A stretch of 63,957 nt of DNA, the filler included, from Planctomycetota bacterium (GTDB lineage Bacteria; Planctomycetota; Planctomycetia; JALXBF01): the NCBI GenBank assembly GCA_026991575.1. It is 7 parts of 7 records of this genome, joined end to end, with 100 filler letters (N's around TTAATTAATTAA, not from the genome) between each part and the next. Parts side by side here need not be neighbours in the genome. Positions count along the whole stretch, not along the records: positions 1 to 22,681 come from JALXBF010000052.1; 6 more parts are not named here. One strand, 5' to 3'. The notes beneath the pieces were generated by a model that was not told where the DNA came from, searched no databases, and worked only from the letters and a program-made list of their open reading frames with translations. Each line of letters opens with the position of its first letter. The stretch's first letter is position 1. The translations under genes and the position numbers were made by a program. This document shows positions 2,736-7,546 of the stretch, one piece after another.

Positions 2736-5072
2736 CTATGGCTCCGTGCATTCCGTCAGAATCTTCCGGTACACGCGGCGTGCATGCTCGTAAGCAGCCC
2801 TGGCTTCCGCGCGTTCCTCTTTCCGTATCGCTCGCACTTTCTGCTGCCAGCACTGGTCCACGGCCTTCAGACACCACTCGGCCGACCGCCGGCTGGCCCG
2901 CACCGGCTTACCCCCCACTATGACCCAGACCGGATTGGTGTGCGATGAGCCCAGGATCCGAGCCGCGATCCAACTGGACTGCTCCACCGGCACGTCCACG
3001 GCAATCTCATGCCAGCTACCGTCTGCCTCGATCGTCCTCGTCGCTTCCTTGACCGGATAGCCGTTGACCACGATCTCCACGGGCACCTTGCGACTGCTGC
3101 CGACCCTGGCCCGTTCGATGTGCCAGTACGGCTTCTGGTAGTAGGGACGGGCCTTGATAGCACGACCTTCTGGACCCGGCTTTTCCGGCAGCAGCGCGGC
3201 GACCTTTAACGTCACGCGCACCTCGCCCGGCTCGTTCAAGTGAACGTCCCCCTGGCCGTACTCCACACCATTCACGGCAAAGTCGACCAAGTGGCTGTTA
3301 CCCTCGGTCACATAGCTGCGGCCGCGCTTCAGGCCGTCGATCCACTTTGCGTACGTTAGCTCACCGTCGAGCTTCACGTACACACGGCCGATACCCACCC
3401 GCTGCCCGAAGATGCACGGGAAGTCGGTCTCACCGGACAACCTGGTACGGAAGCCGCAGTTCAGCGTGTGGTACCAGATATTCAGCTCCCACACGTACGG
3501 GGTATCGACCGCAGAAATGAAGTCGACGGCATCGTGCGTCACATCAACGATGTACTCGTTTGCGCCGATGCCGTTCATGGGGGGTACCAGGTAATTGGGC
3601 AGTTGGTCGGTGTCAACGTTCAACCCCCACCCTGAGTGGGCGAAACCGACCACGGCGCCCTGCGCCTTGGCCCACTTCAGGATCGGCAAATCCCAGCTCG
3701 GCCATTCCTCGATGCGGCTCGTCTTCCGTCCGTCCGGGTACTCATAGTCGTCCTCCTTCAGGTTCAGCAAGCAGAGATGACCGGCATGAGACGACGGGAA
3801 CCCGGAAACCTCCACGTCGTAGCGCATGATGTAGTTCTTGCGTGACAGCGGGTGAACCCGCCCCTCGAAGAACTGCTTCTGGAAATACCAGCACGGGCCC
3901 CAGGACAGAACGCAGCCCACGTTGAGATCTTCGCCGAGGACGTGCCGCATCATGTCCTTCGGGTACACCCCCTCGGTGGGTGTGTCGTAATGGCTACAGC
4001 CAGCCGCGTGGATGTGATGGTCGCCGGAGTAGTAGCCCAGCTCTTTGAGGTGTACCCATCGCCGCAGGCGGAACGTCAGCGTTACCGCCTCCGTCTCGGG
4101 AATCTCCACCGTCCGCTCCAGGACCACGTACTCCGGGCCCCGGCCATAGCGGATCGTGTACTGACCGGCAGGCAGCTTCACGAACTCACCACTCTGGCGG
4201 TAAACCTGGGGATGGAAGAAGAAATCCGGTGCCAGACGGCGTGCCGGAGCCGGATAGACCCGACCACGGCTGTCGCGGATCTCGAACCGCGCCATCGTCG
4301 GCGAGCCATTATCGTCGAGCACTCGGAAGACGACTTTGGTAGACGGCAAACAGGTAAACAACACGGGCACTTCGTTGCGAAACCCGATATCCTGAGTGCC
4401 CTGCCCCACGTTGAACCCGATCGTCGCTTCGCGTTTTCCAGCGTCACGGCTATACAGCTGCACAATCCTGTACTCAAGTTCCAGCCCGGAGAGCGTGCGC
4501 GTCAGAGGGGGACGGTTGTACACTGCGATGTCCAGGAACCGATGAGGCACGTCGCCGGGGCGCACGACCTGATCCGACCGCTTCGCCTTGCCGGGATCAA
4601 TCTTGCCGAACGGATCCGGCGTGCCACTGGATCGCGTGTACAGCGGCGCCGCATTTGGGCTTTCCGCCTGCAGTTCCGCAGTGACGCCGGCTTCGTTATG
4701 GACCTTCACCAGGAAACTGCGCCAGCCTTGCTCCTGGAGCACCGGCGCTGCGGGTCCGGTTCTCACCTTGACCCGACTCTCCGGATTGATGTTCACGAAG
4801 AACAACACGTGCTTGTCGAGCACGCGCTGGATTGCCCGCACAGCCTCGCTTGGCTTGTCCGATCGGATCAACCGCGCGAGTTGTTCGCGATCGGACTGAG
4901 GCAGGGGGGCACCGATGTAATCTAGCGCCTGAACCAAGCGTGCCACCTGCGCCGCCAGCGGCTGGTACTCAACGTCGGTAATGAGCGGCAGCTCGTCCTG
5001 TGCCTCCGCCGCGGCAACAAGCAAACCGACGACCACCGTAACGAAACCTACCCGTCTGAGATTGTCCGTCAT
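2736..5072 (-). CDS. Secreted CehA/McbA-type PHP-domain metallohydrolase
   Basis: Signal peptide, INPESRVKV, GDHHIHAAGC, HAGHL and SGETDFPC motifs; start moved to ATG 5072 because of GGAGG RBS. Confidence 0.8.
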   Translation of the reverse strand: MTDNLRRVGFVTVVVGLLVAAAEAQDELPLITDVEYQPLAAQVARLVQALDYIGAPLPQSDREQLARLIRSDKPSEAVRAIQRVLDKHVLFFVNINPESRVKVRTGPAAPVLQEQGWRSFLVKVHNEAGVTAELQAESPNAAPLYTRSSGTPDPFGKIDPGKAKRSDQVVRPGDVPHRFLDIAVYNRPPLTRTLSGLELEYRIVQLYSRDAGKREATIGFNVGQGTQDIGFRNEVPVLFTCLPSTKVVFRVLDDNGSPTMARFEIRDSRGRVYPAPARRLAPDFFFHPQVYRQSGEFVKLPAGQYTIRYGRGPEYVVLERTVEIPETEAVTLTFRLRRWVHLKELGYYSGDHHIHAAGCSHYDTPTEGVYPKDMMRHVLGEDLNVGCVLSWGPCWYFQKQFFEGRVHPLSRKNYIMRYDVEVSGFPSSHAGHLCLLNLKEDDYEYPDGRKTSRIEEWPSWDLPILKWAKAQGAVVGFAHSGWGLNVDTDQLPNYLVPPMNGIGANEYIVDVTHDAVDFISAVDTPYVWELNIWYHTLNCGFRTRLSGETDFPCIFGQRVGIGRVYVKLDGELTYAKWIDGLKRGRSYVTEGNSHLVDFAVNGVEYGQGDVHLNEPGEVRVTLKVAALLPEKPGPEGRAIKARPYYQKPYWHIERARVGSSRKVPVEIVVNGYPVKEATRTIEADGSWHEIAVDVPVEQSSWIAARILGSSHTNPVWVIVGGKPVRASRRSAEWCLKAVDQCWQQKVRAIRKEERAEARAAYEHARRVYRKILTECTEP

Positions 5073-5216
5073 GGTTCGCTGTCCTCCCACCCTGAGTCGG
5101 GCCCGGACGAACCGGCGCGGCGGCACCAGGCTGAAGAACTGCGCCGCGATCCGGGCAGGTCGTGAGCCGGCGGCACGCAGATGCTTCGGAGCGCTAGCGT
5201 CTGTCCGGCGAGGCGT

Positions 5217-6539
5217 TCAGTACTGCTGCGGATGCCACGCCATGCTCAGCTGCAACTGCAGTAGCCGTTCACCCCGGCGCACGGTCACCGGCACGCGGTC
5301 TCCTGGGCCGTGGTTGAGCCACAGCTGAGCGAGGAACGCCTCCTCGGTCAGCAGATCCCGACGGCCATCGGCTTCGATGATCACGTCCCCTTTGCGAATG
5401 CCAGCGCGCCGCGCCCGCGGATCCCAGCGAAAGACCATGTCCACCTCTAGGGCCATCCGGCCAGGCGGAATGCCGAGCCGCAAGCGTACCGCCTGGCTGG
5501 CCGGCCGCACCCTCATGCCGGGGCGCAAATGCCAGGCCAGCTCACGCCAGGTCAGGTTACCCCGTCGCCACTGCCCCTGGGGCAACCGCAGCACCGTCTG
5601 AGCCTGGCGTCCGGAACGGGCGTATTCTAGCTCAAGGTGCGTACCGTCGCGGGCTCCGTGCAGAATCCACTGGATGTCCGCCTGCGAAATCAGCGGCTGT
5701 CCGTCCAACCGCACCACGCGATCTCCCCGACGCAACCCGGCTCGATCCGCCGGCGAGCCGGGCTGCACACTGGCGATGACCAGGTCATCGTCCCGACGCA
5801 TCTTCATACCCACTGCTTCCGGCAATGGGTAGGCGAACAGATCTCGTTCCGTTAACTGGCCCCGTTCCCACCGCCAGCGCACCAGCGAGGAACCGACCAT
5901 GTGACAATGCACGCAACGCTTCGTGGCATCGTTCTGCTGCGTCCGTTTCCGCAACCAAGAGAACTGGGCCGCATAGCGAACCGGTACCGGACGCGGCTGC
6001 TTGCCGGACAGGGCCGCACGATTGGCCGGGTAGCGTGCATGTAGCTGAAGGGCCCGCTGCATCGCGTGGGTCAGCCCCGCCACGGAAATGTGCGTCGTGG
6101 ACCGATCACGATTGCCCGCCCGCGTGCCGTAGCGACCATACACGGTGCCGTCCGGGTGCATGAAGAGCACGGCCCAGGTCTGATCGTAGTCGAACTGGAA
6201 ACGAGCAAGGTCAACACCGTTGAACGACACGACACGGACAACGACGAAGCGCGCGTAGAGCCGGCGCTGCGTTTCGCTGTGACGAACAACCTGTTCGTCA
6301 AGGCCCCGGCAGGCCAGTCACGGCACTCACCGAAAAACGACCATCAACGGCTTGCCCAATGCTTCCGCCACCTGCGCCGCGCCAGCCAGGTCGTTGTACC
6401 ACCACTGGTCCGGCACCCGAATGTCCTTCAGCAACTCACGCAGCTTATCCTCACCCAGAACCGCGGATTGCTGAGCCCAGGCTTCCGAAAGGCAGGTCGC
6501 AAGAAACAGGCCGCTGAGTAACGGAACGATTCGTACCAT
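5217..6539 (-). CDS. Exported thioredoxin-like/PDZ (seleno)protein with two in-frame UGA codons (UxxUxxC) and a CxxCH motif
   Basis: ORFs 6327-6566 and 5217-6230 share a frame. Reading through TGA 6327-6329 and TGA 6318-6320 gives GKPLMVVFR-U-VP-U-LAC-RGLDEQVV at the thioredoxin CxxC position. AGAGGAG RBS before ATG 6539, signal peptide, two C-terminal PDZ-like repeats (GSPADRAGLRRGD, ARRAGIRKGD). Confidence 0.85.
6280..6315 (-). promoter_or_regulatory. Candidate bacterial SECIS element(s)
   Basis: Perfect 8-bp stem UGACGAAC-AGGUU-GUUCGUCA (6280-6300) starting 17 nt after the second UGA; smaller GGCCU-GCCG-GGGCC hairpin (6302-6315) starting 11 nt after the first UGA. Confidence 0.7.
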
Positions 6540-6730
6540 GGGCACGCTCCTCTTTGCACGGGTCACTCTTTATTGCTAAGCGCCGCGCTGCGCCGGCGAT
6601 GCACCGGTCCGGCTTGACCTGTGCACTACTGGCCAACAGTTCCCGGATCCGCCCCAGCCCGGCTCGCCGTCTCTTTCCGGCCGGAGCTATCCGCGCGGTG
6701 CCTCTCGCCGCCGCCATCCGGAGGCTCCGT

Positions 6731-7546
6731 TCAAGGTGGCTGCGCGCTCGGTTCAGACCGGGGCGGTTCGGAGCGAACGTTGGCGATGACAAAGCTAAGT
6801 GCACCGACGCCATAGACGGCGACAACGCACTCGGTCGCCACCATGGCGGCGGCACGCGGCAGGAGAAACGACAGCAACCGTAGCAAGCCCGCGGTCGTGA
6901 AGTCCACGAACGTATGCACGGCCAGGGCAGCAAACCACCATTGGCTGTGGATCGTGAAAGCTCGCAGCACCATGAGTGAGAGGGCGATCTGTAGAAGGAG
7001 AGCCCAGAGCCGTTCCCACGCGCCAAGCAACGGTTCCCAACCGGAAAGCGTCGCGAACTGCCTGCGAGCCTGCGCGAATGCGTCGGCCAACTCCGGATAC
7101 TGGTCGACGGACAGAAGGTGGATCACAAGGTACGACAGCAGGGTGCTCACCTGGATCAGCGCCACGAACATGCACTCCAGTCCCCCATGACCTGCCCCCA
7201 GCATCAGCGCCGTGGCAACGGTCCGCTGAGGCGGCTTTACCGCGAAGCGTAGCGCCAACCAGCGTCCCCCTTCCTCGAAGAGTCCCGCCGTCAGTGCAGC
7301 GACAAACAGGAAGACTGTCAGCAAGATCGGATCGTTGAGAGCCTTCTGCACGCTCGGCCGGGTCTGCAGCCACGCCATGGCGGGGATCCGCGTGAGCACC
7401 TGGAAGAGCAGAAAAACCCCCGCGCCCAGAAACCAGTACCGCCAGGACACGTGGCACCGCCGAGCAATGAGCAGCCCCGCCATCACGGGTAACACGGTGC
7501 AGATAATCGCGGCAACGCCTAGGTTGGCCACCAGTAACACGTTCAT
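6731..7546 (-). CDS. YhfC-like (DUF2324/PrsW clan) intramembrane metalloprotease
   Basis: Multiple TM segments, AGLFEEGGR, GAGHGGLE, WER and HTFVD motifs; AAAGGAG RBS before ATG 7546. Confidence 0.8.
   Translation of the reverse strand: MNVLLVANLGVAAIICTVLPVMAGLLIARRCHVSWRYWFLGAGVFLLFQVLTRIPAMAWLQTRPSVQKALNDPILLTVFLFVAALTAGLFEEGGRWLALRFAVKPPQRTVATALMLGAGHGGLECMFVALIQVSTLLSYLVIHLLSVDQYPELADAFAQARRQFATLSGWEPLLGAWERLWALLLQIALSLMVLRAFTIHSQWWFAALAVHTFVDFTTAGLLRLLSFLLPRAAAMVATECVVAVYGVGALSFVIANVRSEPPRSEPSAQPP

Follow-up and report, generated by a model that had tools for sequence, protein, structure and literature searches.

A diselenide within a thioredoxin-like fold was reportedly described for SelL by Shchedrina et al. 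in 2007. The gene described here resembles SelL and Prx-like UxxU proteins in specifying two putative selenocysteines (Sec, U) at a three-residue spacing within a thioredoxin-type fold. It differs from them in that its UxxU precedes the canonical CxxC register by three residues and is combined with a signal peptide, a CxxCH motif and two PDZ domains. Against the SelL-related family NF040769, the product scores 22.3 bits, below the cut-off of 120.

The closest described relatives belong to the Trx7/PDZ (seleno)protein family NF041199, which two reviews list as CxxU (available text of PMC13188914 and PMC9312934), the one of 2026 giving one Sec, and which is given as 'CxxC/U' in PMC9402790. Sequences of this type appeared earlier as a 'putative secreted serine protease MucD' with the motifs RCEPU and RCLPU, each with one U (Zhang and Gladyshev, 2008; available text of PMC2398784). 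The present protein has the same architecture, and the Sec of 2008 corresponds to its position 74; a further Sec is predicted at position 71. A pair of UGAs is also found in the UXXU form of Group 4 [NiFeSe] hydrogenases. As far as the available text of PMC13582414 goes, CXXC, CXXU and UXXU form a mosaic on the hydrogenase tree with no clear stepwise order, the SECIS core is conserved and tRNA-ReC is enriched. For the decoding by SelB of two UGAs three codons apart, the same source proposes one SECIS for both and allows that additional factors may act. The present family is likewise a mosaic, but its protein is unrelated, UxxC is absent (0/157), tRNA-Sec is single, and an extra hairpin is specific to the UxxU genes. 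Sec occurs together with haem c in MccSep, a polysulfide reductase with five haems and a single Sec, and in ExtKL (available text of PMC13510729); Sec and the CxxCH haem motif are shared with these proteins, haem being predicted here. With regard to the PDZ-plus-haem proteins MamP and MamE, the MamP PDZ matches at Z 11.4, and the matches cover the PDZ part only.

Neither a two-Sec form of the NF041199 family nor a helper hairpin was found in the literature outside subscription papers. The main text and one supplement of BSepDB, and the main text of deep-Sep, contain no mention of PDZ, UxxU or Trx7, although the records in BSepDB and NCBI may hold two-Sec sequences. The family is known with one Sec; a form with two, and its helper hairpin, appear to be new in print.

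Reading frame and domain layout

The window, that is, the whole stretch of DNA analysed, spans 63,957 nucleotides, filler included, from a genome that is 97.8% complete. The contig that carries the gene (C52) occupies positions 1-22681; beyond 22682, the window consists of other contigs joined via N runs. The gene and all features located below by window position lie on the minus strand. When TGA is translated as U, the frame from 6539 to 5217 encodes a single protein of 440 residues, with TGA at codons 71 (6327-6329) and 74 (6318-6320) in the order GKPLMVVFR-U71-V-P-U74-L-A-C77. A protein split by two in-frame TGA codons had been proposed from the sequence alone, with the strand left out, and the frame agrees with that proposal. 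The double Sec of that sequence-only reading is retained in the present list of features, to which the SECIS, a second hairpin and an invariant CxxCH, all missing before, are added. ORF calling with table 11 yields just the 337-residue downstream piece (5217-6230), and a plus-strand reading was dropped on account of several stops.

Upstream of the frame, a ribosome-binding site, AGAGGAG (6547-6553), is followed 7 nt further by the ATG. Residues 1-22 (6474-6539) form a predicted Sec-pathway signal peptide, identified by a hydropathy heuristic, with a putative cleavage site after AWA. By the same heuristic, the N-terminus is hydrophobic in 66/69 full-length sequences, the present one included. 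Both the ribosome-binding site and the export signal had been anticipated. The signal peptide precedes a Thioredoxin_7 domain (PF13899; residues 46-129; 6153-6404), assigned by Pfam and by thioredoxin-fold matches to 3f9u, 3ira, 3ph9 and 2lst at Z 8.5-9.1. A conserved CxxCH, C209-V-H-C212-H213 (5901-5915), is a candidate c-type haem or metal site. PF13180 matches the C-terminal part in two stretches and defines the first PDZ domain (residues ~245-314; 5598-5807); the second (residues ~336-437; 5229-5534) rests on a structure match to the DegQ PDZ 4yo1 (Z 13.0, rmsd 2.6, 95 aligned). The AlphaFold2 model of the read-through protein, with U modelled as C, has a pLDDT of 94.3, its N-terminal part matching thioredoxins and its C-terminal part PDZ domains.

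The frame closes on a further TGA (5217-5219). A 778-residue CehA/McbA-family metallohydrolase (NF038032) lies at 2736-5219, also on the minus strand, in the frame of this last TGA and with no stop between. Read-through into this gene was considered and rejected: homologues terminate there with TAA, TAG or TGA alike. A search 3' of the last TGA found no AGGUU-type hairpin. The last TGA thus looks like an ordinary stop, so that two recoded UGAs and one terminating UGA would occur on one mRNA region. The upstream gene on the same strand (6731-7543) encodes a YhfC intramembrane metalloprotease (PF10086) and is not a conserved neighbour; across the family, no conserved neighbours were found, the largest gene cluster comprising 15/157 loci. 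From translation and family comparison, the interval from 6539 to 5217 is very likely one gene with two Sec codons.

Family membership and the active-site columns

As the sequence-only reading had suspected, the protein belongs to a known planctomycete Trx/PDZ (seleno)protein family. It scores 401.1 bits against NF041199 (cut-off 300), covering profile positions 2-389 of 390, and the family architecture is present, Thioredoxin_7 followed by PDZ. The Sec column of NF041199, the second motif position, coincides with TGA codon 74, and codon 71 is TGA in addition. Matches above the cut-off occur in 119/401 genomes of the phylum. The homologue set comprised 149 NF041199 matches among the matches listed, 9 further loci and the gene in the window (159 in all), and was reduced to 157 sequences by removal of two identical ones; 1801 lower matches were left out.

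All 157/157 sequences have Cys or Sec (TGA) at both 71 and 74, which is the outcome expected of homologues if the double TGA is correctly read. The present gene included, 81 sequences are UU at the two columns, 45 CU, 31 CC and none UC; column 71 is thus Cys in 76/157 and column 74 in 31/157, and column 77 is never TGA. Proteins with two Sec in one UxxU motif had been called rare; within this family the opposite holds, UxxU being the commonest state. Because 80 other members carry TGA at both columns and 76 carry Cys at one or both, the double TGA is not a matter of chance. When columns 71 and 74 are masked for tree building, the tree requires 20 changes between UU and CU, 13-14 of them forced by well-supported branches, and 4 changes for CC. 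The direction of UU/CU change is unreadable, since the tree has no root.

Paralogues occur together in several genomes. Tandem or nearby pairs are represented by L123 (in G229), L139 (G305) and L068 (G104); L123 and L139 are UU+UU pairs adjoining an ORF that, from its motif, we take to be an HDAC-type deacetylase. All-Cys and Sec paralogues are found together in genomes G003, G128, G200, G204 and G297, and 12 other genomes carry CU and UU paralogues.

In a set of 120 database hits, names such as 'serine protease Do' or DegP are frequent, yet a protease domain is lacking. The present protein is no HtrA/DegP/MucD serine protease despite such names: Pfam gives no trypsin match, hence no trypsin-like protease domain, and HtrA-family matches cover the PDZ region only and lie far under their cut-offs. 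Among the same 120 hits, 52 are shorter than 400 residues or have no motif near the N-terminus, and these most likely represent Sec genes that gene callers truncated. The other 68 are full-length Cys proteins: 37 read CxxCxxC, 11 read CxxCxC, and the third Cys is absent from the remaining 20.

When the protein is aligned with thioredoxins of solved structure (2lst, ERp18), U74-L-A-C77 falls on the canonical CxxC, so that U74 takes the place of the canonical nucleophile, Cys77 (TGC, 6309-6311) that of the resolving residue, and U71 an extra position three residues upstream. Two equivalent redox pairs, UxxU and UxxC, had been envisaged, a symmetry that the homologues do not support. Position 77 is non-Cys in 13/126 Sec forms, where it is Ala, Ser, Gly, Asn or Phe. 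Since Cys77 is dispensable in the family, 71 and 74 form the core pair. On these alignments, Cys77 would be at most an accessory, an optional helper thiol, and a U71/U74 diselenide is plausible. Taken together, the locus is real and intact, and probably a double-Sec member of NF041199.

Selenocysteine machinery, SECIS and helper hairpin

The Sec machinery whose presence had been put forward as a check is complete in this genome. Clustered within 5 kb of contig C184 are selD (itself with one TGA), selB, selA and the tRNA-Sec gene (selC), each scoring above its cut-off. The tRNA-Sec has a UCA anticodon and a G discriminator and is the one strong match in the genome; the 16 other Rfam matches coincide with ordinary tRNAs (150/744 candidates scored). 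Of the 93 genomes that carry a TGA-containing member, 89 have a selA match over the cut-off and 1 has a partial match; selA was not found in 3, which are 67-92% complete and of which two have tRNA-Sec. Among 24 Cys-only genomes, selA is over the cut-off in 7, below it in 1 and not found in 16; the latter are not independent, because all come from one family. A tRNA-Sec search of 80 of these 117 genomes, with 46 candidates scored per genome, gave a match in 71, single in 69 and double in 2. A genome-wide selenoprotein scan proved too strict, missing both the present gene and selD, and therefore serves as a source of examples only. Its candidates with SECIS-like hairpins lie on the minus strand at C65:16230, C14:45056 and C118:72586, with motifs TPGU, CEYU and CVPAGU and the loop at 25, 29 and 23, respectively. 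From the motifs, we take the first to be peroxiredoxin-like, the second AhpD-like and the third a protein with FG-GAP-like repeats.

A bacterial SECIS candidate lies at 6280-6300, where positions 22-28 pair with 34-40, counted from the U of UGA74 as 1. Its stem of 8-9 bp and its loop, AGGUU, identical to the loop in the selD of the genome, agree with the bSECIS model, which comprises a stem of 4-16 bp, a G within the first two positions of the loop and a distance of 16-37 nt from the UGA (available text of PMC13188914). The spacing is 25 nt from UGA74 and 34 nt from UGA71 (31 nt in selD), each value falling in that range, so that one SECIS can serve both UGAs, a single SECIS also fitting the absence of UxxC (0/157). 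Stem positions pair in 85-97% of UU, 60-91% of CU and 0-35% of CC genes. Stem pairs, out of 7, number 6.37 in UU genes versus 4.54 in synonymous shuffles, 5.22 versus 3.80 in CU and 1.23 versus 1.45 in CC. The pair 26:36 covaries (GC 45, AT 13, CG 11, TA 4), and the loop G is found in UU 81/81, CU 42/45 and CC 8/31. A greater strength of the main SECIS in UU than in CU genes was also considered, and dropped when only 0.6 independent pairs spoke for it and 0.9 against.

Between UGA74 and the SECIS lies a second element, a helper hairpin of 5 bp with a 4-nt loop (6302-6315), with the Cys77 codon in its loop region. Over the 18 nt after UGA74, the folding energy is -5.60 kcal/mol in UU genes, -1.88 in CU and -1.43 in CC, versus -2.40, -2.01 and -1.38 kcal/mol in family-wide synonymous shuffles of the same 18 nt. 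Taken relative to the synonymous shuffles of each gene itself, the energies are -3.21 kcal/mol for UU, +0.14 for CU and -0.40 for CC; this residual is negative in 79/81 UU genes, and it falls below -2 in 58 UU, 3/45 CU and 0/31 CC genes. Gene G+C is near equal in UU (0.646) and CU (0.641). A first, binary tree test (threshold -2 kcal/mol, starred branches) gave 5.6 pairs for and 1.5 against, with a median p of 0.22. The continuous test, run with our own pairing code and chosen after the binary one, found the UU helper more stable in 17.3/20 independent pairs on the tree, at a median p of 0.003; once branches under 95 were collapsed, the figure was 21.6/25. The helper register varies among genes, and hence no fixed-column covariation is shown. 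The helper of the present gene is among the most stable 1% of the 18-mers tested in that gene, and it folds side by side with the SECIS at -19.8 kcal/mol (z -2.7). The helper hairpin is specific to UxxU genes.

The ribosome unwinds mRNA at roughly +11 to +13, counted from the P-site codon. With UGA71 in the A site, the helper would stay folded just outside the mRNA entry channel and absorb ~14 nt of spacer, bringing the SECIS within reach of UGA71. Three codons on, the ribosome would have melted the helper, and the same SECIS would be correctly spaced for UGA74. Both UGAs would then be decoded as Sec by the ordinary SelB/tRNA-Sec system through one in-frame SECIS (6280-6300). Going by hairpin positions and spacings, the helper has about an even chance of being such a removable spacer-shortener.

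The UU-specificity of the helper would also be expected if it were a second SECIS for UGA71, or a pause element that lets SelB reload. Such a function is conceivable but doubtful: as regards a second SECIS, the loop G is forced by the Cys77 codon, UU genes without Cys77 keep the hairpin although its loop then varies (AACG and UCCC, for example), and the helper loop has no GG/GU like that of the main SECIS and selD. Reading of one or both UGAs as Cys by tRNA-ReC (SelC*), which would leave no diselenide protein, has a precedent in about 56% of UXXU genomes among the hydrogenases (available text of PMC13582414), and the ~20 switches of position 71 between TGC/TGT and TGA could be taken in the same sense. 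It is nevertheless very improbable here, given, among the candidates scored, the single strong tRNA-Sec of this genome and the one copy only in 69/71 matching genomes, and the fetched tRNAs, 30/30 of which are tRNA-SeC(UCA), 29 with a visible G discriminator. That two nonsense mutations reflect a pseudogene or an assembly error is scarcely credible. Only the possible source run has both codons within one contig, the contigs of three other runs being indecisive, but 80 homologues carry TGA at the same two Cys columns together with a conserved SECIS and intact frames. Decoding of both UGAs through one SECIS, in an exported redox protein, can be put forward with good confidence as the overall best explanation.

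The CxxCH motif and the role of the protein

C209, C212 and H213 are present in 157/157 sequences and H211 in 156/157, never as Sec/TGA, and CxxCH recurs in 119/120 database hits. By default, an exported CxxCH is read as a haem attachment site. Cytochrome c maturation of the system II type is suggested, with two CcsA/ResC-type matches above the Pfam cut-off; CcmE was not found in the genome, and CcsB equivalog scores are below the cut-off. A 93-residue model of the CxxCH segment (pLDDT 90, pTM 0.62) matched no cytochrome or solved fold (best Z 2.9) and had no Foldseek match at E<=0.001, which is not evidence of a new fold. Across the 157 sequences, no invariant distal Met or His ligand was found, the best His being H167 (131/157). 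On motif conservation, the CxxCH probably carries a c-type haem that exchanges electrons with the U71/U74 pair; some probability falls to a non-haem metal site, because there is neither a fold match nor an invariant distal ligand.

Exported by the Sec pathway, the protein would carry out redox chemistry in the periplasm, with U71/U74 as its working pair, in the form of a diselenide or of selenolates. In its relatives, this pair would be a CxxU selenenylsulfide or a CxxC disulfide. Judging from the domain type, both PDZ domains most likely serve to bind clients by the C-termini of these proteins, and any role beyond that of a periplasmic redox protein with PDZ-bound clients would be conjecture. 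A metal or metalloid sensor, in which U71/U74(/C77) form the chelating site for a soft ion and CxHCH is a Zn or Fe site instead of a haem site, is an unlikely alternative reading of the same residues. Ser, Ala or Gly often replaces the third Cys, as it does in monothiol redox proteins; the thioredoxin fold sets U74 at the nucleophile position, and where a genome has genes for cytochrome c assembly, the CxxCH of an exported protein is normally a haem ligand. These points stand against the CxxCxxC or CxxCxC spacing, the invariant H211 inside the CxxCH, the lack of a cytochrome-like fold match and the occurrence of UxxU in metal-binding families such as NF041115 (available text of PMC13188914), all of which fit a sensor. 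The periplasmic redox role with a U71/U74 pair is thus preferred here. A joint reading, in which the helper, as a synonymously encoded hairpin, resets the SECIS distance for the first UGA and is melted for the second, nine bases on, in the gene of a haem c-bearing periplasmic thioredoxin with a diselenide active site, is somewhat unlikely to hold in full; on that reading, the helper would have been gained and lost alongside the first UGA many times in the family.

The commonest form of a widespread protein of the planctomycete phylum is one that gene callers cut and databases mislabel as a protease. With CxxU and UxxU interchanging ~20 times and an RNA element accompanying the additional UGA, the family offers a natural experiment in which two-UGA decoding in bacteria becomes directly testable. 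The protein may pair a diselenide with haem in the periplasm.
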